DNA from: a virus
IMG/VR virus record: IMGVR_UViG_3300042691_019356
Coordinates: 7,318-71,317 of that record
Strand: one strand, 5' to 3'
DNA: 64,000 nt
Shown: piece after piece, positions 5,644 to 63,879 of the stretch
Layout of the letters: every line of letters begins with the position of its first letter
Position numbering within the stretch: position 1 is the first letter of the stretch
Position numbers and translations under genes: made by a program
Notes under the pieces: generated by a model
What the model saw: the letters and a program-made list of their open reading frames with translations, nothing else
Database searches by the model: none
Told to the model about the DNA's origin: nothing

Positions 5644-5880
5644 CTTGGCAGGGCTTCATGCAGCGTTAACACACCTGATTGGCTCCATTCAGCCCAGGCT
5701 CACCGCTGCAGATGCTGGAGCAGTGTAGCAGAAAAGAGATGGCCCAGGCGTGAAGACTGTGGGGGGGCAGCAATCTTCAGGGGTCTGGGCTCTATCCCCA
5801 CGCTTGCCGTAATGGGTCGAGGGCGTGGTATGACCGACCGGAAGCAAGCCGGAGTCATCACGAGATCATACACCACCTGA

Positions 5881-6099: not shown

Positions 6100-6209
6100 T
6101 GAAGTAAAAGTTTGAATTGTTTGCCCCGATTGACCTTACGGGGACTTGTTGCCTGGGGATCCTCCCTACCCGATGGTCAAGGGGCATGGGCCAGGGTGTC
6201 AATCATACA

Positions 6210-6392: not shown

Positions 6393-6688
6393 TTCCTGAA
6401 AGTAAAACGAGTTGAAGGGCCTCGTCCGGTTACGGCATCCCACCAGGCGATGACCGAAATCCGCATCCTGCAATGGTTCCTTCTCCTGTTGTAGGGACCG
6501 GGATCATACAAGGTTTCTGCGCCGACGTGGCCCCTATGACGATCGAGCCAGCGCAAGCAACCACGACGCTCGGGGCATTTATCATCAAAGCATCTTGTCC
6601 AGTCCCTCGGAAGATTCATGGACTGCCTCGCAACTTGATTGCATAATAGCGGAATCCGTTTTGGGTTTGTGCTGTTTTTGTGAAGCAT
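6389..6688 (-). CDS. hypothetical Cys/His/Arg-rich protein
   Basis: ORF coupled by ATGA to the downstream gene. The start is uncertain (6688 or 6619). Confidence 0.35.
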   Translation of the reverse strand: MLHKNSTNPKRIPLLCNQVARQSMNLPRDWTRCFDDKCPERRGCLRWLDRHRGHVGAETLYDPGPYNRRRNHCRMRISVIAWWDAVTGRGPSTRFTFRK

Positions 6689-7202: not shown

Positions 7203-7524
7203 TTTGGTTTTTGAGAGATTGCTTGAGTTGATTGATTTTTGGTTCTACAAGGTGGTGGCTAGAAACAGTTCCAGTAATACCTTGAACAGAAATACGAACT
7301 GATCCACATGGAAGGGTTTCAGTGGTAACAGACATCCACTGCTTCCATTCGTCTTCAGAAACTGGCTTAACCCCCTGAAAAACAAAATGACCACCACCAC
7401 TTCCATTAACGCATCCAAGGCAAGCACAAGCCTGGGACTTGCACCACCTTTTGCGCCAGGCGGAAGGAATCATCTGCATTGCTGCATTGACTTCTGCCTG
7501 GCTCCTCATTTGATCGTTACTCAT
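7147..7524 (-). CDS. hypothetical Cys-containing protein (about 125 aa)
   Basis: The internal ATG at 7524 overlaps the upstream stop (7517) by 8 nt. Confidence 0.4.
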   Translation of the reverse strand: MSNDQMRSQAEVNAAMQMIPSAWRKRWCKSQACACLGCVNGSGGGHFVFQGVKPVSEDEWKQWMSVTTETLPCGSVRISVQGITGTVSSHHLVEPKINQLKQSLKNQNEQLWQQAITGTRIMGAG

Positions 7525-7798: not shown

Positions 7799-8907
7799 CC
7801 CCCCACCTCCGGCAGCGGCAGGGCGGGGGCGGAGAGCCAGTGGGTGTAGAACCTTGCATTCAGCCCACTGGTGCGATCTTCCAGATTCCAACGGCCATCG
7901 GCATTGAGGCAGCTGCTAAACCAGCACCGCCCCTCCGCATCGCAGTCCTCCGGCCCCGGCAGGCGCTCTGAAACAGGGATCGGCTGCGGGGCGGGGCGGC
8001 CCCAGTGCTGCAGGAGCGCATCTATCGCCGCATCCGCAATTTCGTCAAGCCGTAAATCGCTGTCAACGATGGGATCAAAGTCATCTTGATCCATCGTTCC
8101 GACACTCCACGCCTCCCATACACGAGTGCAGTCGTATGTGCTTGTACCAATCGCGCAAGCCACTGCGTCTTTAACCATTGTGCGGAGGCGCTCGGCCACC
8201 GGGATCGGCTGCGGGGCGTGGTGGCCGAAGTTGCGGCCAGCGTTGAATACAGCTCTTAGGCACTTGGCACGGTGCTCTTTTTCTGCTTCTGGGTTCTCTT
8301 CAAGCCATTCGTAGTAGGCGCTGGTAAATAAGAACTGAAGATCTTTTTCGCCATCATCATTGGCTAGTTCTTCTTGAGTTGGCAAATGCCCCGTTGAGTA
8401 GATTTCGTCCAGCTCCTCATCCGTCGGCCCCGCCGGCTGCTCGGCCAGGGCGGCGCGACACCCCATCAAAGCGTCGACCTGGCGGATCACATCATCGAGG
8501 GATGCACTCCAGTAGTCCTTGTGCATGGTTCTGGCTCTGGCGGCAGAATCCGGCGTGTCGGCCATAGCGACAACGCCGCAGGCAGCCAGTCGCAAACGCT
8601 CGCGCTCCAGTTCCGCCTGAAGCGCGGCTATGCGATCTTCCGCCGGCTGCTCGGCCAGGGCGGCGGCATTGAGCGCGGCAATCACGTCCTCAATGGGCTG
8701 CATTACGCCGTCTCTCAGGATGGCCGCACCGTCCTCGCAGATGCCTTCGGTCCAGATAGGGCGCTCCACCGGCTCGGGCTCGGCCAGGGCGGCGCGGGCG
8801 CGGTCTACCAGCAAATATGCGTCGGCGATGTCGGCCTCATCGCCGTAAGCAATCCAGTCTTCAAGCTCGTCAAGCAGCTCAGCGCATAGGGCACGAAAGT
8901 CGGTCAT
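7795..8907 (-). CDS. modular repeat protein with DUF551-like C-terminus (370 aa)
   Basis: Repeated ALAEQPA and APQPIPV(A/S)ERL modules. The C-terminal ERLPGPEDCDAEGRCWF...W pattern resembles the phage DUF551 family, recalled from memory. Confidence 0.55.
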   Translation of the reverse strand: MTDFRALCAELLDELEDWIAYGDEADIADAYLLVDRARAALAEPEPVERPIWTEGICEDGAAILRDGVMQPIEDVIAALNAAALAEQPAEDRIAALQAELERERLRLAACGVVAMADTPDSAARARTMHKDYWSASLDDVIRQVDALMGCRAALAEQPAGPTDEELDEIYSTGHLPTQEELANDDGEKDLQFLFTSAYYEWLEENPEAEKEHRAKCLRAVFNAGRNFGHHAPQPIPVAERLRTMVKDAVACAIGTSTYDCTRVWEAWSVGTMDQDDFDPIVDSDLRLDEIADAAIDALLQHWGRPAPQPIPVSERLPGPEDCDAEGRCWFSSCLNADGRWNLEDRTSGLNARFYTHWLSAPALPLPEVGG

Positions 8908-9122
8908 GGCGTGTCGGGGGTGGTGGGCATCAGGCTCAGGAAATCATCCTTGAAAGCAGGCCTAACCTGGCTCTCGATAAAAATCTTGTCGCCGAGCTGA
9001 TGCGTGAATACTGGGTATCCAAGTCGCTTTTCGATTTCTTTGTGCATAGCGGAAAAGGGGCAGATCAGAACCCCTGTGTAAGCGCTGATCACAATTGCTT
9101 GGTCTAGATCAAGTGGTTTCAT
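8904..9122 (-). CDS. hypothetical protein (72 aa), flanked by 24-bp direct repeats
   Basis: ATGA overlaps at both ends. Both its start and stop junctions lie inside identical 24-mers. Confidence 0.5.
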   Translation of the reverse strand: MKPLDLDQAIVISAYTGVLICPFSAMHKEIEKRLGYPVFTHQLGDKIFIESQVRPAFKDDFLSLMPTTPDTP

Positions 9123-9190
9123 GGCGTGTCGGGGGTGGTGGGTTCATGCTCGGCCAACAGGCGGCGGAGCAGGGTGGAGGCGGATGTCAT
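9119..9190 (-). CDS. possible 23-aa mini-ORF (MTSASTLLRRLLAEHEPTTPDTP)
   Basis: ATGA overlaps with both neighbours. It shares the C-terminal PTTPDTP with the next gene. It may be a remnant left by cassette insertion. Confidence 0.2.
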   Translation of the reverse strand: MTSASTLLRRLLAEHEPTTPDTP

Positions 9191-9432
9191 GCCACCCTCC
9201 TGCCGCGATAAGGGCTGCAAGTGCCGTAGCCGTAGCCGTAGCCGTTGCCGTTGCCGTAGCCGTAGCCGTGGCCGTTGCCGTAGCCGGAGCCGTAGCCGTT
9301 GCCGTTGCCGTTGCCGTAGCTGTAGCCGTCGCCGTAGCCGGAGCCGCTGCCGTAGCCGGAGCCGGAGCCGTAGCCGTAGCCGTGGCCGTTGCCGGAGCCG
9401 TAGCCGTGGCCGTCGCCGATTGGCCCAAACAT
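9187..9432 (-). CDS. Gly/Tyr-rich low-complexity protein (81 aa)
   Basis: This frame was chosen among six open frames because its ATG overlaps the upstream stop (TGATG) and its stop overlaps the next ATG (ATGA). The sequence is (GYG/GSG/GNG)n. Confidence 0.5.
   Translation of the reverse strand: MFGPIGDGHGYGSGNGHGYGYGSGSGYGSGSGYGDGYSYGNGNGNGYGSGYGNGHGYGYGNGNGYGYGYGTCSPYRGRRVA
9223..9417. repeat. about 32 tandem hexamers, plus-strand consensus GCCGTA
   Basis: Direct reading shows gccgtagccgtagccgttgccgtt and so on. All six reading frames are open across the stretch. Confidence 0.9.
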
Positions 9433-9791
9433 CAGTCCAGCCCCCAGCCATCACCCACGGGCACAGAGAAAATTTCGGCGCCAGCAGGAATTTCAACATC
9501 AGACATCGGGCGGATGTCTGCATTACTGGGGTCTTCGATTACCTTCGCGAAGCCGCAGGATTCCCAGCGGAATACCCAAACAGCGCGAGATAGGCGAATA
9601 CGACCATTTTCACGAGTGACGTCACCCGCAAAGATCCAGCCGCGATCAACAACCACAACAGCACGGTTGCCGTTGGGCTGCAGAGCGGGAACGGAATCGG
9701 CGCGAACGTAGTCAACGCCGTTGATGGTGATGGTTTCAGTCATTTGGTTAGTGTGTTGTTGGTGATTGTGGAGAAGGGTGGGGTCAGCCAT
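9432..9791 (-). CDS. hypothetical protein (119 aa)
   Basis: Its start lies in an ATGGCTGA junction with the upstream stop. Confidence 0.5.
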   Translation of the reverse strand: MADPTLLHNHQQHTNQMTETITINGVDYVRADSVPALQPNGNRAVVVVDRGWIFAGDVTRENGRIRLSRAVWVFRWESCGFAKVIEDPSNADIRPMSDVEIPAGAEIFSVPVGDGWGLD

Positions 9792-9996
9792 CGGCCTGCT
9801 TCAGCTCGGCGGCGATGGCGAGGAGGTCAGCGCGGATTTCATTGTTCCGGCGTGATCCATTTGCCGGCACCACCTGATCCGCAGCGGCGTGGAGGGCGGC
9901 AGCGATGCGCTCACGACATACGCGGTCCCTCTGGATCACCTCATTGCTCGTGAACGCAGCCATGACTGCCTGCGCTGCGGGGGAGAGGTCAGCCAT
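9784..9996 (-). CDS. hypothetical Ala-rich protein (70 aa)
   Basis: The internal ATG at 9996 is preceded by GAGGAGG and sits in a second ATGGCTGA junction. Confidence 0.45.
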   Translation of the reverse strand: MADLSPAAQAVMAAFTSNEVIQRDRVCRERIAAALHAAADQVVPANGSRRNNEIRADLLAIAAELKQADG

Positions 9997-10090
9997 GGCG
10001 CTCCACCTCCTCACGGATGATGTCGGCCCAGCCAATAGCTGCGGGGTTGCGTTGCTTAGACGTGGTACGGTGTTGTGATTGGTTTTCCAT
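9989..10090 (-). CDS. possible 33-aa mini-ORF
   Basis: ATG 10090 overlaps the upstream stop as TGATG. This is the only part of ORF 9989..10237 not overlapping the better ORF. Confidence 0.25.
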   Translation of the reverse strand: MENQSQHRTTSKQRNPAAIGWADIIREEVERHG

Positions 10091-19724: not shown

Positions 19725-19926
19725 ACTTTCTGCTGTTCCGAGACTTGTTGCGGTAGCTGACTTTTTCCTTGTTGATTTCCTGCATCAGAGCCCTGAGTCG
19801 ATCCGCTTCGTACTCCCCCCTGCGCTCTGCAATTTCAGCAAGAGTTTCTTTGTAGCCAGGTGGCTCAAGGTCTGGGCGACGAAGGAATATCTGAGTCCAG
19901 TTTGGTGTTGGGTGTTGATCCGACAT
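19702..19926 (-). CDS. hypothetical protein (74 aa)
   Basis: Its start abuts the dnaB stop. Confidence 0.45.
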   Translation of the reverse strand: MSDQHPTPNWTQIFLRRPDLEPPGYKETLAEIAERRGEYEADRLRALMQEINKEKVSYRNKSRNSRKSSSAKGS

Positions 19927-21374
19927 CAGAGGCGATCAAATACAACAGATGACGCAAGATCAATCTTGCATTGAAGTGTTCCAGTGATGCCACCTCGATT
20001 TTTGGCAACCGAAATCGCAAGCTCGTAGGGATCGGCCTCAGTGTCGTAATAACCAGGACGAAACAGAAACATCACAATATCTGCATCTTCCTCAATCCGA
20101 CCAGATGCACGTAGGTCTGACAACGTTGGCATCTTGTCGTTTCGCTGCTCAACACCACGATTGACCTGACTCATTAAGATAATATCAATTCCAAGTTCAA
20201 CAGCAAGACGCTTCAATGTTTTTGTGGCAACACCAATTGCAGTTGCGTCATTTGCTGTTCCAGTGCATCCATCTATCAACTGCAAATAGTCAATGAAAAT
20301 ACCACGAAGGTTGGGGCGCGTTCTTGCAAGCATTCTCACAGTTGCAGCAACGGAAGCAACATCCTGGCTTTTATCAAAAACATCAAAAGCCTTAACAAAG
20401 GAAGAAGTATTAAGCTCTTTGATTCTCTGCCTTTGTGCTGGGCTGTAACTACGATTCTGTAAATTGCCCATCCTGATTGGATCAACAATTCTACCAGCTT
20501 CTTTCATTCGCAAGAAATCAAGACAGGAAACTGCCTTATATTCGATCTGACGCCTTGGCATTTCAAGACTGAAAAAAGCAACGTTGTTGCCAGTATTAGC
20601 CAGGTGTGTTGCAAGTGTTACGGCAGCCGTTGTCTTGCCCATTGCTGGCCGTGCAGCAATTACAATCAATCGACCACCGTAAGCTGAATCGGGTCCGGCA
20701 ATACCACCTTGAATAGTATTATCAAGAATTGTAATACCAGTGCTGACAGTATTGTTCTCTGGCAGTGGTTGAAGCAACTCTGTAATTGTGCTATCCCATC
20801 CCTTATCTCCCTGTTCATCTTCTGATAGTGAATTCCATATAGTTTGCTGTCTTTCAATCAGAGACGGAATCTTTTCTGCAAGTAGCTCATGGCTTGGGCT
20901 TTCATCAAGTGCGTCAACAAGAAGTTCAGCCGAATTGCGAAGGTAGCGCCTTGCAAGCTTGAGACGCCAAAGCGGAATAACAGAATCAGAGAGAACAGAG
21001 AAAGAATATACACCAGCAAATAACGGACTTGCTGATCTTGCGTTTTCCACGATCTGTTCGCCACTTTCTTCAGACTTGAGTATTCCGCTCATAATCATTG
21101 CATTCAATCTCAATGCAATGGATCCGGGCATAATAAATCCATCTTTGCCAACCTCTAACATTGCCTTGCTAATTGCAATATACGCGGCACGCATCTTTCT
21201 ATCGCTAAACCAAGAATCATTAACAGAGGAGACAACTTCGTACATCTTGCTGGATCTGTAGTCACCAGACTCAATCGCATCAACACAAAAAGCAACAAAT
21301 GCTTCTTCCATTTCAGTTGTATCCCATGACCGCATGAAAGGGATCAGGGATTCAGCCTTCTCGATCTTCTTCAT
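19926..21374 (-). CDS. dnaB: DnaB-type replicative helicase
   Basis: Walker A AARPAMGKTT and Walker B IFIDYLQL. The 482-aa length and overall DnaB C-terminal RecA-fold pattern fit. Confidence 0.9.
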   Translation of the reverse strand: MKKIEKAESLIPFMRSWDTTEMEEAFVAFCVDAIESGDYRSSKMYEVVSSVNDSWFSDRKMRAAYIAISKAMLEVGKDGFIMPGSIALRLNAMIMSGILKSEESGEQIVENARSASPLFAGVYSFSVLSDSVIPLWRLKLARRYLRNSAELLVDALDESPSHELLAEKIPSLIERQQTIWNSLSEDEQGDKGWDSTITELLQPLPENNTVSTGITILDNTIQGGIAGPDSAYGGRLIVIAARPAMGKTTAAVTLATHLANTGNNVAFFSLEMPRRQIEYKAVSCLDFLRMKEAGRIVDPIRMGNLQNRSYSPAQRQRIKELNTSSFVKAFDVFDKSQDVASVAATVRMLARTRPNLRGIFIDYLQLIDGCTGTANDATAIGVATKTLKRLAVELGIDIILMSQVNRGVEQRNDKMPTLSDLRASGRIEEDADIVMFLFRPGYYDTEADPYELAISVAKNRGGITGTLQCKIDLASSVVFDRL

Positions 21375-22180
21375 GAAAGTGTGTAGTTGACTTTGTTTGT
21401 AGTTGGATTTGCAGGAACTTGCTTACCGCATTCCTTCGTGATCTTGCAAATAACGTCCTTGTATCCTATAAAGCCAAGTGACTGCCAGTTTCTCTCGGAA
21501 GCGTACTCACAGTATTCTGCAAGGACTCCAAGCTGCTTTGCATACAACAAGCCATTCAGCGTGGATTTTGTAAGTCCTGGTGCAACGCGAGGATGTGCCT
21601 TGCGGCGGTTGGCCTGCCACTGCTCCAGGTGCTCCCGGTAGGGCTCCAGCCAGTCGGGCAGCTCCAGCGATCGAGGGCTGGCCGCTGAGCGTCGAGGGGT
21701 CGGCGGTTGGGGGCTATGGGGGTTTTCTTGGTTTATTGGTTTTCTTTCTATTGGTTTTCTCTGGTGGACTGAAAATCCGTCCGCTGGTTTTCCGTCCGCC
21801 GGTAGGCCGGTGGACTGATTTTCAGTCCACCGGTCATCGGCCACCGCTGGCGACGGCTGCTCGACCGGTTCTGGCGGAACTGCCTGGTCGGTGAACTTGT
21901 AAATTTCACCAGTAACACGACCATCCGCATTCCTGGTTTTCACGTTCTGCAGGTAGCCATATTCCCTAAGCTCGCGCAGCGCAACTTTTATGGCATCTCT
22001 CCCCTCGGTCCCATGAGAGATAATCCAGTCCCTTGTGAAAACAAAGTTCTCAGCGTGTGAAAGACATCCAGCGAGAATACCCTTTGCACGCCAGCTAATC
22101 CTGCTATCTCGTATAGCCTCATTAAGAATGATGGTAAAGTTTTTACCAGCAGGAGTCGATGTAAAACGCAAGTCGCTCAT
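21371..22180 (-). CDS. replication initiator-like protein (winged-helix N-domain)
   Basis: The N-terminal wH segment ends in ALRELREYGYL. It lies immediately upstream of dnaB with an ATGA junction. Its central linker carries DNA repeats. Confidence 0.6.
   Translation of the reverse strand: MSDLRFTSTPAGKNFTIILNEAIRDSRISWRAKGILAGCLSHAENFVFTRDWIISHGTEGRDAIKVALRELREYGYLQNVKTRNADGRVTGEIYKFTDQAVPPEPVEQPSPAVADDRWTENQSTGLPADGKPADGFSVHQRKPIERKPINQENPHSPQPPTPRRSAASPRSLELPDWLEPYREHLEQWQANRRKAHPRVAPGLTKSTLNGLLYAKQLGVLAEYCEYASERNWQSLGFIGYKDVICKITKECGKQVPANPTTNKVNYTLS
21735..21833. repeat. ori-like repeat cluster inside the initiator gene
   Basis: ATTGGTTTTCT occurs twice (21735, 21750). TCCGTCCGC occurs twice (21776, 21791). 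GGTGGACTGA occurs at 21763, and a 27-bp perfect palindrome CCGGTGGACTGA-TTT-TCAGTCCACCGG spans 21807-21833. Confidence 0.6.
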
Positions 22181-23382: not shown

Positions 23383-23994
23383 ATGCTCAAGAACGACAAC
23401 TGGATCCGTCACCAGGCTTCAAATGGAATGATCGAGCCGTTTACTGGTTCGCTTGTTCGTGAACTTGTCTGGACTGACGAGCAGTCACAGTATTTTACAG
23501 AAAAGGTGTTGAGTTACGGAACAAGTAGCTATGGCTATGACCTACGGCTTTCACCAAAGGAGTTCCTGATTTTCAAGCACGTTCCAGGAACTGTCATGAA
23601 TCCCAAGCGGTTTAATCCAGCAGCAAATCTTGAGTCCGTTGAACTACAGGAAGATGAAGATGGTTTGTTTTTCATCCTTCCAGCGCATTCATACGGCTTG
23701 GGTGTTGCACTTGAGCGTCTTCGTGTCCCAAGGAACATTACTTGCATCTGTCTTGGTAAGAGCACTTATGCAAGAATGGGCATTATTGTCAACGCAACTC
23801 CAGCGGAAAGCGAATGGGAGGGGCATCTGACACTGGAATTCAGTAATTCAAGTGGTGCAGATTGCCGCCTTTATGCAAATGAGGGCATCTGTCAGATCCT
23901 GTTCTTTGAAGGCGAGGAGTGTTCGACCAGTTACCAAAATCGTTTCGGGAAATATCAAGGGCAGCCTGAGCGGGTTGTTCCGGCTCGGATTTAA
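23383..23994 (+). CDS. dcd: dCTP deaminase
   Basis: N-terminal ML.NDNWI, SYGYDLRLS and EWEGHLTLEFSN motifs are typical of Dcd/dUTPase-fold enzymes. Confidence 0.8.
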   Translation: MLKNDNWIRHQASNGMIEPFTGSLVRELVWTDEQSQYFTEKVLSYGTSSYGYDLRLSPKEFLIFKHVPGTVMNPKRFNPAANLESVELQEDEDGLFFILPAHSYGLGVALERLRVPRNITCICLGKSTYARMGIIVNATPAESEWEGHLTLEFSNSSGADCRLYANEGICQILFFEGEECSTSYQNRFGKYQGQPERVVPARI

Positions 23995-24047: not shown

Positions 24048-24917
24048 ATGAGCCTCAGTGACTACCTCAATGCCGTGGGCAAAGTCCCACTGCTCACGGC
24101 GCAGGAGGAGATCATCCTCGGAACACAGGTCCAACGGATGATGAAGATTCTTGCAGACAAGCAGGAATCTGAATTAACAGAGGAGGAGAGAAAGCATGTA
24201 CGAGTTGGCCGCAGGGCCAAGAATCGTATGGTTTCTGCAAACCTGAGGCTTGTTGTCAATGTGGCCAAGAAATTTAGACCACAGGCTCACATGAAAATGG
24301 AAGATATTTTGCAGGAGGGCAGCATTGGGTTGATGCGTGCCGTCGAGAAGTTTGACCCAGAGCGCGGATACAAGTTTAGTACATACGCTTACTGGTGGAT
24401 AAGACAGGGAATAACAAGGGCGGGAGAAAATCAAGAAGCAGAAATCAGAGTTCCAGCTCACCTGCAACGAATCGCCAAGCAAGCGGCAGACGCCAGATCA
24501 AAGCTTTTATCCAAAAACGGTAGGCAGCCAACTGTAAAAGAAGTTGCACTTGCTATCAACGAGCCAGACCCCAAAAAGATTGAGTACGCAATTGCGCATC
24601 AGGTTTATACGTTCTCCCTTGACATCTCGCTGCTAGATGGTGACAAGAGTCCATTGCTGGACATCATGAACTGTGATGACGAAAGCGAGATAGAGGACAA
24701 TGAAAACAATAAAATGAAAATGGACTTATTGATGCTGGCAATCAATGCCCTTGATCCAGTAGACGGAAGCATGATCAAAAAAAGATATGGAGTTAACTGT
24801 GAACCCCATACAATCAAGCAACTATCGGCAGAGTTTAATCTTTCGCCTCAGGCGATCAGGGACAGAATCAACAAAGCGATGAACAGGATCAGGATTGTTG
24901 TCAGCCAGTTTGTTTAG
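24048..24917 (+). CDS. sigma-70 family RNA polymerase sigma factor (regions 2, 3 and 4 present)
   Basis: PLLTAQEEI, NLRLVVNVAKKF, EGSIGLMRAVEKFDPERGYKFSTYAYWWIRQ, and a region 4 HTH LSAEFNLSPQAIRDRINKAMNRIR. Confidence 0.9.
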   Translation: MSLSDYLNAVGKVPLLTAQEEIILGTQVQRMMKILADKQESELTEEERKHVRVGRRAKNRMVSANLRLVVNVAKKFRPQAHMKMEDILQEGSIGLMRAVEKFDPERGYKFSTYAYWWIRQGITRAGENQEAEIRVPAHLQRIAKQAADARSKLLSKNGRQPTVKEVALAINEPDPKKIEYAIAHQVYTFSLDISLLDGDKSPLLDIMNCDDESEIEDNENNKMKMDLLMLAINALDPVDGSMIKKRYGVNCEPHTIKQLSAEFNLSPQAIRDRINKAMNRIRIVVSQFV

Positions 24918-56387: not shown

Positions 56388-58088
56388 TCAGGATTCCCTG
56401 CTTTCGACGCTCGCTTCCATGCTCTCGCCCTCCAGCGCTCTGCCAGTAGCTTCCTCCATAGTGTTCTGCATGTTGTTTGTTGCAGGGGGCTCCGGGGCAA
56501 GCTGTTCCTTGTTGGGGCCGATTCCGAGATCCTTTGCGGTCTCGCTTCCCTCCAGGCCCATCTTTTCAAGCAGTGTCTTAACGCTGAAGTTCGGCAAGCC
56601 TTCAAACAGCTCACCAGCATCGAGCATTTCAAGAAATGTGCCAATGGGAATAGCATTGGAATCCTTGAACAAGCTGCTGTATGCCATGACTTGCTGGCTA
56701 TGAAGCTTGACGGGAATGAAGTTCTTGCTAATCGTAATTTCAATCGGTGGGTAGTTGCGGTAGGCGGAGGCGTACATCAACGCTGCATTCAGGCAGTCCT
56801 GCAGTGAACTGATCAGCACAGCAAGTTGCGAATCAGATTGAGAGCGATCGAGCAGCTTGGCAAAGCCTGATTCAACCTGTGTTTTGCCAGGTGTCATCGT
56901 CACGGCAGCTAACTTGTCCATCGCGGCTTCAATCCGTGCAAGTTCTTTCAATGTTGTGTCGGCACCCTCCATGCCAGGAGACAGCATTCCAAACCTTGCA
57001 TCTGGATTAGCGCTAAACAAGGCACGACCAGCACCAGAAAAAATCTCTTCATCCGGCCTGATGCCAGTACCGGTCAGCATCGTGGACGCATTGAGGTGAA
57101 TGTTCTCGGAAAGATCAGCAGAAACGGCCCAGTGGTGCAGATTGAGGCGGGCAACGTCATACAGAAGTGGACGGGCACGGAAAAATGCCTCTTTTTTGCC
57201 GCCGTAGCAGGGCCGGAAGGGAATAAATGACAGCGAAAGGATGGTTGTCATGCCTTCATTAAGCAAATATCTGTTGACATTCTCGTTTCCGGTGTCTTTT
57301 TCGTAAATACGGCAACGAACACGCTCTTCAACGACATCGCTACCAGGATTTTGGTACGGAATCAGATCGTAAACAACGACAGTAGGAATAACTTCCTCAA
57401 AATGTTCGTTTTCAAGGCTTGGGCGACGAATTTCCGACTTGATTCGCAGATATGTAACGCGAGTATCGTACCTCGTAACCCCATTGATTGTTACCGGGCC
57501 ACGATCATCACGAATATCAAGCACATCATCAGTCGGAATAATGACAAAATAGGGCCTGGCATTCAGCATGATCTCCTCGGCGGACGTAATTCCGTCGCGC
57601 ATTCGTGGATATTCAGACCAAATGCCGGCAACACCACCATTCAGAGCCTTCGTGAACAGCTCTTTAGTGAACGAAGTGATGGCATTGCCCTGGAGATCGA
57701 CGTTTTTGAAGAATTCTTCCCATTGCGGAGGTACGTCCTGGGGAAGGATTACCCCTTTTCGCAGTGCTGTACCAACAATCAGGTCAACAAGATGGCTATA
57801 ATACGGCTCGAAACACGTCAGTGCACGGGTTTTGCGGACGTTGTAAGACTCCGGGTGCTCTCGATGATCTTGCGGAATCGTTCCAGGCGCCGCTTCATCA
57901 AGCCAATACTCGGGATAGGTGCAGAATTTGATCGGCATCAGCCGTGTCATCTGCTGCGCTTGCTCGGGAGAGTAGGAATCAGCATCTACAACCTCTTCCA
58001 GGAATGTTTCCTGTTCCGGGAACCGACGCTCAAACGGATCGAGATTATCGTCGGCCCCGAGAATCAGCGAGCTGGGCGTGGCAATCAT
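56388..58088 (-). CDS. portal protein (566 aa)
   Basis: Size and position downstream of terL and upstream of the scaffold gene. Confidence 0.6.
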   Translation of the reverse strand: MIATPSSLILGADDNLDPFERRFPEQETFLEEVVDADSYSPEQAQQMTRLMPIKFCTYPEYWLDEAAPGTIPQDHREHPESYNVRKTRALTCFEPYYSHLVDLIVGTALRKGVILPQDVPPQWEEFFKNVDLQGNAITSFTKELFTKALNGGVAGIWSEYPRMRDGITSAEEIMLNARPYFVIIPTDDVLDIRDDRGPVTINGVTRYDTRVTYLRIKSEIRRPSLENEHFEEVIPTVVVYDLIPYQNPGSDVVEERVRCRIYEKDTGNENVNRYLLNEGMTTILSLSFIPFRPCYGGKKEAFFRARPLLYDVARLNLHHWAVSADLSENIHLNASTMLTGTGIRPDEEIFSGAGRALFSANPDARFGMLSPGMEGADTTLKELARIEAAMDKLAAVTMTPGKTQVESGFAKLLDRSQSDSQLAVLISSLQDCLNAALMYASAYRNYPPIEITISKNFIPVKLHSQQVMAYSSLFKDSNAIPIGTFLEMLDAGELFEGLPNFSVKTLLEKMGLEGSETAKDLGIGPNKEQLAPEPPATNNMQNTMEEATGRALEGESMEASVESRES

Positions 58089-58117: not shown

Positions 58118-58462
58118 TTATTCGGCACTACCCCTGGCGATGATTTCATTCAAGGTATTACAGTAGATGGTGATCAGCATTTCAAGCGTGCCAATGACTG
58201 AGTAAATTGTCATCTCTCCACTTTCAATCACGCCAATGCAAACCGTGATCAACTTACTATAAAGCTCTGGGCAGGTAAATGAAAGCGCAACAGAACGATA
58301 GTGGGCGACGTCATTGACAACAAGCCGAAGCTGGCCAATCAGATCGGTGATTTGCTCGCAGGTCTCAAACTGTCCGCACTCAAGTAAAATATCACCAATT
58401 TCTTTCTTGAATTGCATGTAGCGAGTGGATGGCTTCATTGATGTGGCTGTGGTGCGCCGCAA
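58118..58462 (-). CDS. hypothetical protein (114 aa)
   Basis: ORF between terL and the portal gene. Confidence 0.4.
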   Translation of the reverse strand: MRRTTATSMKPSTRYMQFKKEIGDILLECGQFETCEQITDLIGQLRLVVNDVAHYRSVALSFTCPELYSKLITVCIGVIESGEMTIYSVIGTLEMLITIYCNTLNEIIARGSAE

Positions 58463-58470
58463 TCATAGCG

Positions 58471-59883
58471 CTACTTCCAACGCGGGCCATAGCCAGCACG
58501 CATACCAGCCCTGGGGAATACCTGCCAAACGAGGTAGCGGAACGCATCACCAGCATGGGAGTGGTCGGTGGCACCACCCTTCAACGGCTTCATCGTCTTG
58601 CTGTCATACACCCATTGCTCCAGTGATGCAATGGTGTCGTAACAGGTCGTTGGATTGACGAGAATGCAATTCCGGTGGATGTAGAGGTTGGTGTGGGCCA
58701 GGGTCTCCGCGATCGGCGGGTTGCGGCGCTCCGTCACCACCTGCACGCCGGCATTCCGCAGGATGTCGTGGTCGCTCTGGGTCGAGGCAGTCGAGCCGTG
58801 GCTGCCGCTGGCGTCCGGGTAGCAGGTGATCATGCCATTCGCCAGATGACGTGGGAATTTGCGTTGCAGATGAGCAACAAGCGCAAAGGTATCAGGGACA
58901 CGAGCTTCATCAAAACAGTGCAGCTGCTGACCACCAGGACCAGGACGGACAACACCATAAACGGATTGGCATTGACCCACGTTGAAGTCAGCGCCAAACA
59001 CAATGCGTTCACCGGCTTCGGGATGAAACAGACCAGTGGAATGCTTCTGTCGATCGAACTCGTAGAAGACAGTGGCAGATTCAAGGTTGACGAACTCACC
59101 TTCGAGATACGCCTTAATCAGTGACGGATGGTACTTAGATTCGAGGTCAGCAATAAAACCGGGATCAAGGTATGGGTTTTCGCGGGACTTACCTTTATAC
59201 AGCTTCTTGTTGTCAGCTGGTTCTTTAACGTAGAAGGAATACATCCATGCAAAGCCTTCAGGCGTTGACACGGTGCAAATTTGTGGGCAGTTACCAACAC
59301 GAACGCGACCCTGCAGCTTCACCATTGCTTTCTCGGCAATGTCATGCCTGGACGTGTCAATTTCATCAGCTACCAGTGAAGCAGCATTGACACCGACGAG
59401 ACGTTGGTAGTTTTCAAGCGACCGCTGTAGTATCGGAGTGTCACCACCGGGAATCTTCAGAATGATGTTCGGGCGGGGAGAAGCGCGGAACTCATACGGG
59501 ATCGAGTATTTCTCCAGCACCTGGAACCAAGTAGGTAGCGCCACGTCCATGATTAGCGGAACGGTGGGCTCCAGAAACAAATGCGTGAAGCCAGGAGATC
59601 GCAAGCAAAGAAGAATTGCTTTTATTACGGCACTGTAAGATTTACCAGAACCGTAGCCCGCACAGAACCCAACGTACTTGTGATCAAAGTCACATACAAA
59701 GTCACGCTGATACGGCAGTAAATCAGCAACCAGCCTGGATTCAAGATCCTCGCCATCCAGTCTCGATTTCGTTCGCTTCGATAGCCGATTCAAGATCGCT
59801 TGATCTGCCAGTAGCCCCAATCCGCGCAGCGATGCCTGGTCCGCATATCGTGTCGCCTTTGCCTTGATCGGCATTCGTGTCAA
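58471..59883 (-). CDS. terL: terminase large subunit
   Basis: Walker A CAGYGSGKS and Walker B LVADEID, with a C-terminal nuclease-sized domain. The start is TTG 59883 or ATG 59874. Confidence 0.85.
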   Translation of the reverse strand: MTRMPIKAKATRYADQASLRGLGLLADQAILNRLSKRTKSRLDGEDLESRLVADLLPYQRDFVCDFDHKYVGFCAGYGSGKSYSAVIKAILLCLRSPGFTHLFLEPTVPLIMDVALPTWFQVLEKYSIPYEFRASPRPNIILKIPGGDTPILQRSLENYQRLVGVNAASLVADEIDTSRHDIAEKAMVKLQGRVRVGNCPQICTVSTPEGFAWMYSFYVKEPADNKKLYKGKSRENPYLDPGFIADLESKYHPSLIKAYLEGEFVNLESATVFYEFDRQKHSTGLFHPEAGERIVFGADFNVGQCQSVYGVVRPGPGGQQLHCFDEARVPDTFALVAHLQRKFPRHLANGMITCYPDASGSHGSTASTQSDHDILRNAGVQVVTERRNPPIAETLAHTNLYIHRNCILVNPTTCYDTIASLEQWVYDSKTMKPLKGGATDHSHAGDAFRYLVWQVFPRAGMRAGYGPRWK

Positions 59884-59906: not shown

Positions 59907-59936
59907 TTGACAAGGAAAAGAACAGTGGGATACAAT
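59907..59936 (+). promoter_or_regulatory. near-consensus sigma70 promoter (TTGACA-N18-TACAAT)
   Basis: Read directly on the plus strand, 24 nt from the terL start and divergent from it. Confidence 0.55.
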
Positions 59937-59956
59937 ATCACCGTTGCTTGGCTGCC

Positions 59957-60061
59957 ATGACAAAGGCCGAAATCACCGCAATCACCATCGTTGTTGCATC
60001 TGCTGTCATTGCTATGCTGTTTACAGTAACTGATGCAATGATCCAACTGCACCATGGCTGA
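59957..60061 (+). CDS. 34-aa single-TM peptide (MTKAEITAITIVVASAVIAMLFTVTDAMIQLHHG)
   Basis: Hand-translated ORF downstream of the promoter. Its stop overlaps the next ATG in an ATGGCTGA junction. Confidence 0.4.
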   Translation: MTKAEITAITIVVASAVIAMLFTVTDAMIQLHHG

Positions 60062-60332
60062 TTTCATTGTTCCTGACGGCTGGCCCATTGATCGTCATGT
60101 TGATGCCCACGAGTCAAATGAAAGATGGGGGCCATGCTATGTCTTTGATGCCAGTGGAAATTTCATTGACAAGGCAATCTCGTGCCATGTCAGCGCTGGA
60201 GAGGTTATATCTGTTTTCATGGATGCCAATGGTATGTGCGAACGTGGTCTGGATAGTAAGCCTGCAACAATCTTGACGGTTCATCCAGCACCACTTATTG
60301 TTCGACAGATCAAGGAACCCGTGCTACCCTAG
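60054..60332 (+). CDS. hypothetical protein (92 aa) on the opposite strand
   Basis: Clean ORF bracketed by a consensus promoter and a strong plus-strand terminator. Confidence 0.5.
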   Translation: MADFIVPDGWPIDRHVDAHESNERWGPCYVFDASGNFIDKAISCHVSAGEVISVFMDANGMCERGLDSKPATILTVHPAPLIVRQIKEPVLP

Positions 60333-60352
60333 TCACGTTCTTGGAGGACACT

Positions 60353-60383
60353 TCCCTCGGGGTGAGATCCGGGGGATTTTTTT
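60353..60383 (+). terminator. intrinsic terminator (plus strand)
   Basis: TCCCTCGG-GGTGAGAT-CCGGGGGA followed by a run of seven T. Confidence 0.7.
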
Positions 60384-60620
60384 GGAAAAAAATTTGGTGG
60401 CAAGGACTTGTTGTTATATGGTGTGGTGAAAATATATTGTGGTTGGGAAGGATTTGTTGAAAATGGGAAAAAAATTGTGGTCGTTGAAATTGGGAAAAAA
60501 ATTTGGTGGTGGGCTTGGTGAAATTGGAAAAAAAATCTAGGGGTGGGTTTGGTGAAAATGGAAAAAAAATTTGGTGGTGGGCCCGTTGAAAACGGGAAAA
60601 AAATTTGGGAGTGGGTGGTC
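60384..60620. repeat. phased A-tract repeat array (six GGA7-8TTT units)
   Basis: GGAAAAAAA starts at 60384, 60466, 60493, 60526, 60560 and 60595. The last four units of 33-35 bp read GGAAAAAAATTTGGTGGTGGGCYYGGTGAAAAT. Confidence 0.85.
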
Positions 60621-60713
60621 GCCGCCGTTCCGCGCAAAATGTAACCCACCCCGGCTAAATTGTAACCCATTCCTTATTGCATCGTAACCTCTGCTTCGAT
60701 GTATTGCAATGTA

Positions 60714-60743
60714 GCGGCCCCTTGATTGTATTAAAGGGGCCGC
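60714..60743. repeat. 10-bp-stem hairpin GCGGCCCCTT ... AAGGGGCCGC
   Basis: Read directly, just past the stop of 60756..61670. There is no T-tract on either strand. Confidence 0.7.
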
Positions 60744-60755
60744 CGTTACTGTTAA

Positions 60756-61670
60756 TCAGCGCTTGCGATTCTCCTCCTGCTTGTTGGAAAATGTGATAAC
60801 ATCGCCACGGCGAAGGACTACCCTGCCGCAGTAATCTGCGAGAGCATTAAGAGTGCCCTCCAACGTATTAAACCGTGCCACGCCCTTAAACGTATCTTTG
60901 TGTTGGATCATATATGCTGCCAGTGATACAACCCTGGCACTGCCACCCTTACTGGTCAAGTTCGTTTGAGCTGTAACCCAATTAAGCAGGGCATGTTTCT
61001 GCAATTTACCGCGCTTTTCATTGGCACTGATCGATGTGATGATTGGACGCGTCAGAGCATCAATGTCACGCGGACTGTAACCAGTATTGATCTTCTCACT
61101 GATTCCCCAGCCAGCGCGCTCCATTGCGGCGCGCGTGATCGCATCAGGCTCCCAGACAGGCTGTCCGGGCTTGACGGTACGTGAACCCTTCTCAACGGTC
61201 GGCAGGGGGGGCAGGGGGGCCGCCATTGACGCTAGGAGCGTATCAAGCTCCAGCATTACCGGATCGTCGGCATCCTCTGCCACAGCGGCGTCCTCTGCCA
61301 CAGCGGCGTCCTCTGCCGCGTCAGCAGCGGCCACACTTGCGGCGATCCTCTCAGCAGAATCAGCAGCGGCCACGGCGTCAGCAGCAGCAGCAGCAGCAGC
61401 AGTAAGGTCGCCGGTCGCCATAGCGTCAGCCACGGCCACAGCAGCAGCAGCGGCGGCGTCAGCAGCAGCGGCCACAGCGGTAGCAGCGTCAGGATCAGCG
61501 GCCACAGCAGCAGCAGCAGCGGCGATCCGATCAGCAGCAGCAGCGGCATCCTTGACGTAGTTGAAGGAGCGGCCGTTGTTCTTGCGATTGTTGGGCACGG
61601 TTTTTTCCGGTAGGCGGGACTGGTAGAGGTTTGTCCCGTTGCAGGAATCATACAACCCCCTGCCTGCCAC
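60756..61670 (-). CDS. protein with Ala/Asp low-complexity N-terminal half and globular C-terminal domain (304 aa, GTG start)
   Basis: This is the only frame with a non-repetitive C-terminal 160 aa. The start codon is uncertain. Confidence 0.45.
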   Translation of the reverse strand: MAGRGLYDSCNGTNLYQSRLPEKTVPNNRKNNGRSFNYVKDAAAAADRIAAAAAAVAADPDAATAVAAAADAAAAAAVAVADAMATGDLTAAAAAAADAVAAADSAERIAASVAAADAAEDAAVAEDAAVAEDADDPVMLELDTLLASMAAPLPPLPTVEKGSRTVKPGQPVWEPDAITRAAMERAGWGISEKINTGYSPRDIDALTRPIITSISANEKRGKLQKHALLNWVTAQTNLTSKGGSARVVSLAAYMIQHKDTFKGVARFNTLEGTLNALADYCGRVVLRRGDVITFSNKQEENRKR

Positions 61671-61907
61671 GCAACCTACAGGCTAAACCGGTTTGCAAAC
61701 CGTAACAGTCTCGCCACGTTGTAGGACGGTGAACCGCAAAAAACATTCGTTTTTAGCCGTTGCGGGAACGTGCTAGCAGCCGTGCCATACAGATAAAAAC
61801 GCGGGAATTGTGGGGAACCGGCAGGTCGATGTAACTAACACCTGGCGCGGTTTGCATCAGCGCCGGCACCCTATCTTGCATCGGTTGGGTTTGTTGTATT
61901 TAGCGAT

Positions 61908-62382
61908 TGCAATGTATCATTGTGTTTAGCATCTGCTATGTATTGTTATCTATCAGCAATTGCTATGTAACAAACAGCGATTGCAATGTATTGTAATTCG
62001 ATCGTAATGTAATGTAGAAGGCTGTGCATTGTAATGTAACTGCAGCTGTATTGTAATGCACCGGGGCGTTGTATTGTAACGTGCATTCGTTGTATTGTAA
62101 GGCGTACTTGTTGTATTGTAGCACGGAACGGGCGTAACGTAACGTGGCGCAAGCGTAATGCAATAAGGTAAATGGCGTAATGTAATGAATGGCGTTGTAA
62201 TGTATTATGAATGGCGTTGCGATGTAATGAATGGCGCAATCGCCTGTAATGAATGGCGTTGCGATGTAATGTGAATGGCGTTGTAATGTAATGAATGCGT
62301 GAATGGCTTGTTATGAATGGGCCTGGGGCTTGTCATGAATGGCCCAGATCAGTGTTGCGAATGCGCTTGTATTGAATGGCGT
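61908..62382 (+). repeat. iteron array, about 22 direct repeats with a 21-22 bp period
   Basis: Cores are TTGC(A/T)ATGTA, TGTA(A/T)TGTA and (GTAATG)AATGGCG. Positions are listed in the findings. Confidence 0.85.
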
Positions 62383-62815
62383 TATTCCAAACTTGTATCT
62401 TGTGGGTTCTCTGTTGCTTGGTGCCAGGGTTTGCAAGCAAGGGATCGACAATAATGTATTTTTTCTCTTTGTAATCTACCATGCGAATGAGATCAAGTTC
62501 ACGCAGGTCTTGTATTGCTCGCCGCATTGTTCTTTCATGAATGATGGTTTCTTCTGCGAATTCCACCAGATTGTAATGTATCAACATCTTGCAATAAGAA
62601 ACGTCAATAAGCGTGGCAAGTATTGCAAATGATGTCATCGAAAGATTGAGATCACCCCTGTTGCGAAGTATTTTAAGCAGTCTTGCACTCCATGGAGGTA
62701 ACGTACCAAGGCTTGTAGTTAGTTGCATTTTGTAGAAATTTGGGATGGGTTCCGGGCGGCCCCGAATTGTAAACGAGTTTTGTAAAACCCTGTCGTGGAC
62801 TGGGGTTCTCGCCAT
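62333..62815 (-). CDS. winged-helix DNA-binding protein (160 aa; possible TTG extension to 62971)
   Basis: The C-terminal segment ETIIHERTMRRAIQDLRELDLIRMVDYKEKKYI fits an HTH plus wing. ATG 62815 is preferred over TTG 62971. Confidence 0.5.
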   Translation of the reverse strand: MARTPVHDRVLQNSFTIRGRPEPIPNFYKMQLTTSLGTLPPWSARLLKILRNRGDLNLSMTSFAILATLIDVSYCKMLIHYNLVEFAEETIIHERTMRRAIQDLRELDLIRMVDYKEKKYIIVDPLLANPGTKQQRTHKIQVWNNAIQYKRIRNTDLGHS

Positions 62816-62980
62816 GGGATTGTCAAATTCCCGGTTTGAGATCCATTGCGGCGCAGTCGATCTCGGGAGTTGCTTATTATTATTTATGGCCTGTACGGCA
62901 ATCCCTATGGTTGCAATGCGACCACGCACAACGTTGTAATGCAACTTGACAGCCGTTGCAATGTAATGCAATACTCGTTG

Positions 62981-63817
62981 CTATTCAACCTCGGACTCCT
63001 CCAATGCAACTAACAGTTGATCGACACCAAGTGCGGTAGATTGTAATTGCTTCCCGATGTCAGCTAACTTGGCAGCAGCGTTTAACATTGATGGCATGTC
63101 CCGTACTGTAATGTTTTCTGCATTGTCCAGCATTGTATTCAAGGTGGCATTGGCAAGTTGTGCAATCTTTGCTGCATTCATACTTAGCTGCCGACCAATT
63201 GCTTCTTGTTCCTGGCGATACCTCTCCAGTTGCATTAAGTGTTCCTGTTGTCTTGCATCCTGGGACAGCTTGATCTTCTGGGATAGCATGTACCTGTCGT
63301 AATCAGCAGCACGTAGCTTCCAATTGTTCTTGCAATAAATCTTGTAGATGGTTGATTCTTGTATATTGAGTATCTGCGAGATATATTGTATTGATCGACC
63401 CCCTCCCAGTTCTAGGAAGGATTGTAGGAATTGAAATTCTCGTTCAGATTCAAGAGGGGCGTACTGTGACCTGTATAGCCAGGAATGTGTTTTGGTTGTG
63501 GGGGAGGAGTTAGTGGGCGCGAGAATAACTTCTTCTTGGGTATTGTCATCACTATCAAAACCAAAAGGATTGACATCAACAGTAGCATCATCTTGTGATT
63601 CATCTTCAGCGTCATTGTATTCAAAGTCATACTGTGTTGTATCTTCATTCGTGTCTTCGTTGTAATCAGATTGGTTGGGCACTTGTGATTGGGGGCGGGT
63701 GGTTGTAATTCTACCACGGGTGGGATGTTTGTGCTGGGGACTGGTTGTAACGTTTCCATTCCTGTAACGTAATGTGAGTTGACACAAAAAATGGGATGTG
63801 ACATTGCCACACCCCAT
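62981..63817 (-). CDS. HTH plus coiled-coil protein, terminase small subunit candidate (278 aa)
   Basis: Acidic N-terminus, an HTH-like segment RSIQYISQILNIQESTIYKIYCKNNW, then a long helical region. The TerS call is tentative. Confidence 0.4.
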   Translation of the reverse strand: MGCGNVTSHFLCQLTLRYRNGNVTTSPQHKHPTRGRITTTRPQSQVPNQSDYNEDTNEDTTQYDFEYNDAEDESQDDATVDVNPFGFDSDDNTQEEVILAPTNSSPTTKTHSWLYRSQYAPLESEREFQFLQSFLELGGGRSIQYISQILNIQESTIYKIYCKNNWKLRAADYDRYMLSQKIKLSQDARQQEHLMQLERYRQEQEAIGRQLSMNAAKIAQLANATLNTMLDNAENITVRDMPSMLNAAAKLADIGKQLQSTALGVDQLLVALEESEVE

Positions 63818-63851
63818 TGACTTATTCCAGTAGTAACCATGTTCAAAGCCA

Positions 63852-63879
63852 ATCGAATGTATTTGGCGCTACATTCGAT
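63852..63879. repeat. perfect palindrome ATCGAATGTA-N8-TACATTCGAT
   Basis: Read directly, 35 bp upstream of ATG 63817. Confidence 0.8.

Follow-up and report, generated by a model that had tools for sequence, protein, structure and literature searches.

We analyzed a locus at positions 60,353-63,879 of a 64,000-nucleotide (nt) stretch of viral DNA, which corresponds to positions 7,318 to 71,317 of the IMG/VR virus record IMGVR_UViG_3300042691_019356. The whole stretch is called the window below, and all coordinates are those of the window. Its source is an uncultured freshwater phage, probably a cyanophage. The locus reads on the minus strand, as do almost all genes of the window, and holds in the order of reading a palindrome, a gene for a homologue of the small terminase subunit (terS), a gene for a stand-alone winged helix-turn-helix (wHTH) protein, a long field of short repeats, an orphan gene named X here, and a series of hairpins and T-run boxes. 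A preliminary description of the window had listed eight elements at this place; all eight were found in the locus, and the repeats are far above chance. Do these elements belong together? The comparison with related phages reveals a block that always stands directly 3' of terS and combines a conserved repeat field acting in cis with a wHTH protein of its own and an orphan gene. We tentatively read the locus as the packaging-initiation (pac) region of a phage clade.

Conservation of the locus in related phages

Relatives were gathered via TerS, five lineages through homologues and 46 IMG/VR loci from an alignment of TerS. The alignment did find them, although single-protein scans of IMG/VR with TerS, the wHTH protein and X returned no relatives. 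The same phage was recovered on contigs up to ~71.9 kb. In the 46 IMG/VR loci TerS is 41-58% identical to that of the window. A homologue of the wHTH gene lies directly 3' of terS in all 54 loci whose sequence continues for 500 nt or more downstream, and the order terS, wHTH gene, CATTCA field, G+C-rich orphan open reading frame (ORF) and hairpin/T-run box is kept in every lineage that was read through. The ORF at the position of X carries its own promoter-like element in the lineages read. The pieces are thus present as a conserved unit in every related locus examined, and the preliminary description, which the absence of such a unit from related phages would have contradicted, passes this check. 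The distance to the large terminase gene (terL) is not fixed: relatives have 1.4 to more than 6 kb between the wHTH gene and terL, and the intervening cargo varies. The features of the locus and its surroundings are collected in Table 1.

The starts of contigs were also considered as a proxy for DNA ends. About 15 of about 52 independent contigs start within ~900 nt around the terS start or inside terS, with a broad spread, which might reflect DNA ends near terS; strain variation or assembly breaks, for instance where conserved sequence meets variable sequence, explain it equally well, and the proxy was rejected. The contigs starting near or in terS are L003, L004, L036, L037, L040, L044, L046, L051 and L058-L063 (L numbers denote related loci). 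Two contigs from different samples, L005 and L006, both stop 681 nt into terL, at about window position 59202.

Table 1. Features of the locus and its surroundings, in the order of reading on the minus strand
Feature	Position	Strand	Remarks
Palindrome ATCGAATGTA-N8-TACATTCGAT	63852-63879	.	Perfect 10-bp inverted repeat with 8-bp spacer; 5' of terS; candidate operator (putative role)
Hairpin, 13 bp, then U6	63790-63818	-	Intrinsic-terminator-like; -19.7 kcal/mol, z -4.4; overlaps the annotated terS ATG
terS-like gene, 278-aa ORF	62981-63817	-	Probable start GTG 63682
terS-wHTH spacer, 165 bp	62816-62980	-	Two copies of the field's lineage-specific motif (GCATTACA[T]TGCAAC / GCATTACAACG)
Stand-alone wHTH gene, 160 aa	62333-62815	-	Invariant 3' neighbour of terS
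Repeat zone 1	62171-62385	-	~10 units with (G)CCATTCA core, 20-22 bp spacing; begins in the last wHTH codons
Repeat zone 2	62000-62170	-	Lineage-specific TTACAWTAC / CGTTACA units, period ~21 bp
Repeat zone 3	61890-61999	-	Four ~25-bp units TACATWGCARWYGCT with near-palindromic AGCAATTGCT-type core
G+C-rich spacer	61655-61889	-	Blocks in common with L014 (CTGTATGGCACGGCTGCTAGCACGTT) and TGCAAGAT-type boxes
Extended -10 element TGTATGAT	61647-61654	-	Predicted X promoter; conserved element in relatives
5' leader hairpin of X, GGGAC...GTCCC	61615-61638	-	z -2.6
Gene X, 280 aa	60756-61598	-	N-terminal half Ala/Asp-rich, helical; conserved ~150-aa C-terminal domain ends in helix and beta-hairpin
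11-bp G+C hairpin	60713-60744	-	Directly 3' of X, flanked by TACATTGCAA; -23.7 kcal/mol, z -4.95
Clade box TTAGCCGGGGTRGGTTAYA, G-arm/C-arm hairpin, then AAATTTTTTT	60597-60658	-	Kept across the clade
A-tract array	60376-60616	-	~7 tandem copies of C-arm + AAATTTTTTT + CCCATTTTCAAC; period 34, some copies degenerate
Opposite-strand cargo cassette	59907-60376	+	TTGACA-N18-TACAAT promoter; 92-aa ORF 60054-60332; terminator 60353-60376
TerL	58471-59883	-	Followed by portal gene 56388-58088

The TerS-like protein

The first protein of the locus, described before as a helix-turn-helix (HTH) and coiled-coil protein, proved to be TerS-like. By sequence, the protein of 278 amino acids (aa) is a homologue of small terminases: it matches phrog_6299, 'terminase small subunit', a family of cyanosiphovirus terS, with an E-value of 2.8e-9, and a relative with 49% identity (P0014) matches the same family with 2.5e-13. 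In a tblastn search with the 278-aa protein, only the annotated terS genes of the cyanosiphoviruses S-CBS2 (2e-11), PSS2, S-CRES1-3 and CL131 were returned. In S-CBS2 and S-CRES3 the homologous terS directly abuts terL, unlike in the window, where 3.1 kb lie between the two genes; no other candidate for TerS abuts terL. The TerL of the phage is nearest to those of cyanosiphoviruses and of Jersey- and Dhillon-like phages, which use headful packaging.

An AF2 model built on an alignment of 12 sequences has a three-helix HTH at residues 125-163 (pLDDT 82-91) followed by long helices at 166-231 and 238-275, and residues 1-110 are disordered and acidic. The N-terminal ~100 aa carry a strong acidic charge, differ in length and show no conservation between family members, which is unusual for a small terminase. 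A fold search in BFVD returned only the family itself and cyanophage proteins, and a sequence-profile search of PDB returned nothing. Where does the protein start? Relatives have 216-264 aa, and the annotated ATG lies within a terminator-like hairpin; GTG 63682 is therefore the probable start.

The stand-alone winged-helix protein

The call of a winged helix for the product of the second gene was right, as matches to PDB profiles and Pfam agree with it. The profile of the family matches an archaeal regulator (2d1h, E 1e-3), TubR (6tey, E 0.009; 4asn, E 1.2) and MarR proteins, and its best matches in PDB and NCBIfam include regulators of the MarR, Lrs14 and Sta1 types. Pfam HTH_36 is matched by five of seven family members (best 3.1e-5) and RepL by three of seven (5.4e-4), all below the curated cut-offs, and DnaD_N is matched as well. 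Members also match the N-terminal domains of replication-initiator and DnaD-like families of PHROG (186, 678, 345, 428, 270, 8102, 1032 and 19658) with E-values from 7e-6 to 0.03. A tblastn search against isolate phages gave a single hit, an annotated RepL with E 0.04; the same search against the 72,556 plasmids of PLSDB gave none. By hhalign, the probability of a relation to the initiator of the phage itself is 3%. These matches are weak yet mutually consistent, and they may be taken to indicate the fold class and a leaning to wHTH domains of the replication type only. The protein is 101-190 aa long across lineages and has only a short basic tail past the wing; no helicase-recruiting C-terminal domain was seen in it.

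In a word-indexed search of 5.8 billion proteins, no relatives outside the phage itself were returned for the wHTH protein or X. Both families have diverged to 15-38% identity, and therefore both look orphan in ordinary searches.

The repeat field

The iteron array of the preliminary description proved to be a repeat field at ~61890-62385 with counts far above chance. TGAATGGC occurs 13 times in the window while 4.1 are expected, a number reached in 0 of 100 shuffles, and eight of the copies lie at 62186-62380. TTGYAATGYA occurs 12 times (0.9 expected; 10 within the locus) and GTAATGTA seven times (0.7 expected; all within the locus).

Which part of the field is shared by the clade, and which belongs to a lineage? 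In 42 lineages CATTCA units begin inside the 3' end of the wHTH gene and continue into the field behind it. The number of copies around the wHTH stop codon is 2-25 (median ~10), for a background expectation of at most 0.5, and they point in one direction in 39 lineages, with one reverse copy in each of the remaining three. The field extends over 450-1000 nt in the lineages read and is composite in each. The units of zone 2 differ, being TTACAWTAC in the window and L014, GTTACA in L007 and GTTAAT in L012; the core of zone 3 is also found in L007, L011, L012 and L014.

Motifs of the field recur 5' of terS, of the wHTH gene and of X. On the minus strand, TTGCATTACA and ATTGCAAC each occur twice in the 165-bp terS-wHTH spacer, as had been reported. 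What is more, 7-mers of a field are about three times commoner in the terS-wHTH spacer of their own lineage than in the spacers of other lineages (0.31 versus 0.11 per 100 nt). The own spacer ranks first of 34, a weak signal in that 16 of the 34 lineages have no exact match. As field motifs recur in the upstream regions and in the own terS-wHTH spacer, autoregulation by a lineage-specific binder is suggested, for which the wHTH protein would be the most economical candidate. The decamer TTGCAATGTA, said to link the pieces of the locus, does occur four times, at 60704, 61907, 61981 and 62956, two of these being one position off the places given before. The palindrome 5' of terS is present exactly as claimed; in L007 other palindromes occupy the equivalent position.

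Gene X

For the third gene a protein of 304 aa had been claimed. The corresponding ORF (60756-61670) exists, and the protein itself is probably 280 aa long: gene callers and relatives place the start at GTG 61598, and the extra 24 codons of the longer reading overlap the TGTATGAT -10 element and the leader hairpin. An equivalent leader hairpin (GGGGACC...GGTCCCC) is found in L011, L012, L014 and L015. The TGTATGAT octamer is also seen at 5865-5872, 6202-6209 and 6503-6510, each time on the minus strand and 5' of a small ORF with a G+C-rich leader, and judged by these copies it looks like a recurrent promoter type of the phage.

An exhaustive HMMER search over 1.84 billion representative proteins with the C-terminal domain of X found five. 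X matched nothing in Pfam, PHROG, NCBIfam, PADLOC or the PDB profile search, an NTPase motif was not detected in it either, and hhalign gave no relation to the wHTH family, the initiator (including its C-terminal part) or TerS. The single-sequence AF2 model is confident only in the Ala-rich helices, with pLDDT below 50 for the C-terminal domain. In the lineages read the ORF has 170-280 aa. X with its leader has 55-70% G+C versus 30-45% G+C in the flanking DNA (window, L007, L012, L014, L033 and L058). The Ala/Asp tract, encoded by GCN/GAY repeats, is an expansion largely confined to the lineage of the window.

Hairpins, T-run box and A-tract array

The hairpin following X had been described with a 10-bp stem. 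A hairpin does follow X, at the position given in Table 1 and with a stem of 11 bp; TGTAACCCA occurs at 60640 and 60661. Downstream of X, 22 lineages can be aligned over GGGGT, a variable inner segment, a C-rich arm, AAATTTTTTT(T) and CCCTATTCCAGC, and the inner segment can form a hairpin of its own. This box (consensus AAATTTTTTTTCCCTATTCCAGC) is present in 1-3 copies in most of 22 other lineages versus ~7 in the window. The A-tract array had been listed as an element in its own right. It is present, but because relatives mostly carry 1-3 copies and the window ~7, its sequence is best explained as a local tandem amplification of the 3' arm, the T-run and the box, that is, of the hairpin/T-run/box found throughout the clade. 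Within the longer array, 3.9 copies of the period-34 repeat were detected, and all five occurrences of GRAAAAAAATYT (0.12 expected) lie there. Scanning IMG/VR for exact matches to the T-run box pattern gave 17 loci, several of them from contigs already in the set.

Is the box a terminator? Its hairpin folds in 15 of 15 lineages tested (-13 to -30 kcal/mol, z -0.8 to -5.4), with AAA between the stem and the T-run. RNAalifold found only four invariant pairs, all G-C, and no covariation, and the hairpin of the window's own box is no better than shuffles (z -0.3). A role as a transcription terminator is plausible. The conservation of AAATTTTTTTTCCCTATTCCAGC over 25 nt suggests that the box may also be a protein-binding or promoter-proximal site. 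A scan of the locus against Rfam gave only a sub-threshold isrG hit in the Ala-codon repeats (21 bits versus a gathering score of 100), and a tRNA scan of the locus gave none.

Surroundings of the locus

Between the A-tract array and terL there is a cassette on the opposite strand. Its promoter is near consensus, its 92-aa ORF has no family match and its terminator is clean. In relatives the same slot is taken by ThyX, antisense ORFs or several small genes. The preliminary description had considered a terminase-recognition region separated from terL by this cassette. The cassette is there, but it is variable and looks like moron-type cargo outside the machine. A 114-aa ORF without family match lies at 58118-58462 (-) between terL and the portal gene; ORFs of this type (99-140 aa) stand at the terL-portal position in several relatives, and L007 has none.

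The separate replication module reported at 19.9-22.2 kb was confirmed. The ORF 21371-22180 (-) matches several initiator PHROGs (best E 1.8e-16), and the ORF 19926-21374 encodes DnaB. The module has internal iterons of its own, palindromic units (ACCGGTGGACTGAAAATCAGTCCACCGG and relatives) followed by an A-rich run at ~21734-21835 in the linker region of the initiator. This layout is that of lambda O/ori, and 21734-21835 is probably the primary origin. On the strand opposite to nearly all genes, the window also encodes a sigma-70-family factor (24048-24917, +) and a dCTP deaminase (23383-23994, +). One conceivable target of the sigma factor is the set of conserved boxes in the locus. A local peak of G+C content is observed at 8001-10000 (0.60 versus ~0.50 for the window).

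Possible functions of the locus

What could such a locus do? We rank packaging first because the adjacency of terS, wHTH gene and field never varies, the format of repeats and A/T tracts is a known one and the primary origin lies elsewhere; its probability may be put at roughly 0.35. Terminase recognition sites are known to take the form of short repeats in arrays, with A/T tracts, next to terS, as in pacL/pacR of SPP1, cosB of lambda and pac of P1, and the median CATTCA count (~10) is of the order of the subunit number of a TerS ring. The TerS homology, the nearness of TerL to phages with headful packaging and the hint of autoregulation also speak for this reading. In the packaging scenario terS and the wHTH gene, standing side by side, would probably form one unit, and their products would load onto the field, whose first repeats lie within the final codons of the wHTH gene. 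Recognition might have two layers, one in the CATTCA cores that the whole clade shares, the other in the repeats flanking them, which differ by lineage. TerS would act as a generic DNA-wrapping oligomer, and the fast-evolving wHTH protein as the specificity or architectural subunit. The complex would mark concatemeric phage DNA for TerL, the same motifs 5' of terS and the wHTH gene would give autoregulation, X would have a strong promoter of its own within the module, and the G/C hairpin with the T-run box would close the unit ahead of the late operon. Both this pairing of proteins with repeats and the packaging role are what we infer from the arrangement.

Several points weigh against packaging. 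A Foldseek comparison of the TerS model with PDB gave no significant TerS match (best E 1.4; G20C TerS at E 7.7). The recognition helices of TerS and of the wHTH protein are only partly conserved, so that the assignment of the invariant CATTCA core to TerS is weak. The spacing of CATTCA has an overall mode of 13 bp and lineage modes of 4, 13, 17, 9 and 22 bp, which means no universal helical phasing. The only homology signals of the wHTH protein lie with replication-type domains (O-like, DnaD_N, RepL, HTH_36) and TubR, and with no terminase component. A field of 450-1000 bp with three repeat classes is several times longer than the known pac/cos regions. The strongest objection comes from the distant TerS homologues: in S-CBS2 and S-CRES3 no wHTH gene, X, arrays or T-run boxes were found around terS and terL. 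The non-coding apparatus therefore travels with the wHTH/X block and not with the whole TerS family, and the block looks like an inserted, self-contained function instead of a requirement of that family. A modified packaging scenario, which we regard as rather unlikely, is an undescribed two-component packaging site or a coupling of replication and packaging, where the wHTH protein would polymerise on the 20-40 repeats together with TerS and possibly X. An O-some-like complex of this kind would set where the terminase engages the concatemer, or when it does so relative to genome copy number.

The resemblance of the wHTH protein to initiators raises another question, whether the locus is a second, auxiliary or late origin. 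Here the protein would be a small initiator of the RepL/O type with iterons starting in its own gene, and transcription from the X promoter together with the A/T-rich repeats would aid the opening of DNA; we consider this explanation possible but rather unlikely. It accounts for the matches to initiator PHROGs, HTH_36, RepL and DnaD_N, for the annotated RepL as the sole tblastn match among isolate phages, and for repeats that in many lineages already start within the 3' part of the wHTH gene; in L033 and L058 zone 2 has a very high A/T content, and the block is self-contained and missing from the S-CBS2-type relatives. However, a complete O-like initiator with iterons and DnaB is already present, the wHTH protein lacks a helicase-recruiting domain, and X is unlike the C-terminal part of an initiator. 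The 20-40 repeats in three classes with variable spacing also differ from the usual 4-8 iterons of 17-22 bp, and all the homology E-values are weak and below curated cut-offs. No DnaA-box cluster was found at the locus, and the GC skew has only a local C-rich anomaly from terS to the box, with no genome-wide switch of the origin/terminus type.

Regulation could be the primary function as well. The wHTH protein would then be an autoregulated repressor or activator of the terS, wHTH and X promoters in a transcriptional switch or timer at the early/late boundary, its sites may titrate the regulator as genomes replicate, and the terminator in the hairpin/T-run box would gate the late operon. The field motifs 5' of all three genes, the terminator-like hairpins that bracket the unit, the conserved promoter and leader of X, the MarR, Lrs14 and Sta1-type regulators among the best wHTH matches and the sigma-70-like promoters 3' of the T-run box in L007 and L058 fit this explanation. 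Yet a 450-1000-bp field far exceeds normal promoter control, the fold of the box has the four invariant pairs without covariation and the shuffle-like hairpin of the window described above, and its 25 conserved nt go beyond the needs of a terminator; a switch as the main function is unlikely in our view. Packaging, origin and switch are not mutually exclusive.

Two other explanations have much less in their favour. The preliminary description had allowed for a phage-plasmid lifestyle, in which the locus would be a partition centromere with the wHTH protein as a TubR/ParR-like binder that forms a segrosome on the packed direct repeats. The profile matches to TubR point this way, and same-direction repeats packed at ~13 bp beside the gene of a binder resemble tubC, parC and omega-heptad arrays. 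But the scanned ORFs of the window and the Pfam tables covering the other 7 kb of the genome yielded no integrase, ParA, ParM or TubZ, X matches neither an NTPase motif nor a family, and no relative exists among 185,579 bacterial and archaeal genomes (GTDB representatives) or the 72,556 plasmids. Since no integrase, ParA or genome copy was found, a phage-plasmid lifestyle is unsupported, and a centromere is very improbable. The last explanation is that there is no machine at all, only hypervariable repeats, a moron and terminators adjoining by chance. It is true that the cassette between the box and terL is variable cargo, and that lineage-specific expansion gave rise to both the Ala/Asp tract of X and the seven-fold array of the box. 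The order of elements, however, is kept in every lineage read through, including those whose TerS is 41-58% identical, and chance adjacency is hardly credible.

If packaging is the function, why would the locus deserve attention? To our knowledge, the choice of the terminase start site is understood in a handful of model phages and essentially unknown for environmental phages, including cyanophages. The locus offers a clade-wide candidate defined by sequence, with TerS, an obligatory wHTH partner and a composite field of an invariant core and fast-evolving flanks. It would be a natural system for the evolution of specificity, and possibly for exclusion between co-infecting relatives. If instead the second origin or a copy-number timer is true, a replication-type initiator domain would have been recruited into the packaging region. 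In addition X, with five representatives in 1.84 billion proteins and a conserved, predicted strong promoter, is a clean target for functional discovery.

Comparison with known systems

Is there any described system like this one? The preliminary description had called the ensemble undescribed, and no described system matches it: a full-text search of the literature found nothing comparable to this combination, and we know of no described phage system in which an initiator-type wHTH protein fixed to terS is joined with a three-zone field and an embedded, strongly promoted orphan gene. The nearest by position are cosB of lambda (the wHTH of gpNu1 on R3-R1 with an IHF bend), pacL/pacR of SPP1 (G1P) and the pac hexamers of P1. 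Like the present locus they have direct-repeat arrays adjacent to terS, bent A/T tracts, a small terminase with an HTH, and autoregulatory sites overlapping promoters. The field here is 3-5 times longer and has three repeat classes, with a separate wHTH protein and an orphan gene inside. Distant TerS homologues do without this block. Within the cyanosiphovirus TerS family (S-CBS2, PSS2, S-CRES, CL131; phrog_6299), of which the 278-aa protein is a member by sequence, the difference from S-CBS2 and S-CRES3 is that terS is followed here by the wHTH gene, the field and X, and that the protein has an acidic, disordered N-terminal extension of ~100 aa.

Lambda O with ori-lambda, RepL with oriL of P1 and the small RepL plasmids are alike in the weak HMM similarity of the wHTH and in repeats that run from the 3' end of the gene. 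Unlike lambda O/ori and P1 oriL, the present locus has no helicase-loading domain, has 20-40 repeats and not 4-8, lies in the packaging region, and is accompanied by a canonical O-like set elsewhere. TubR/tubC, ParR/parC, the omega heptads of pSM19035 and SopB/sopC also put a small binder beside dense direct repeats and have repeats in promoters, and TubR/tubC adds the weak wHTH profile match; a motor NTPase and signs of an episomal or lysogenic state were not found in the scans here. Every component of the locus is of a known kind, namely a small terminase, a wHTH protein accompanied by direct repeats, and hairpins resembling terminators, and what seems new is their combination.

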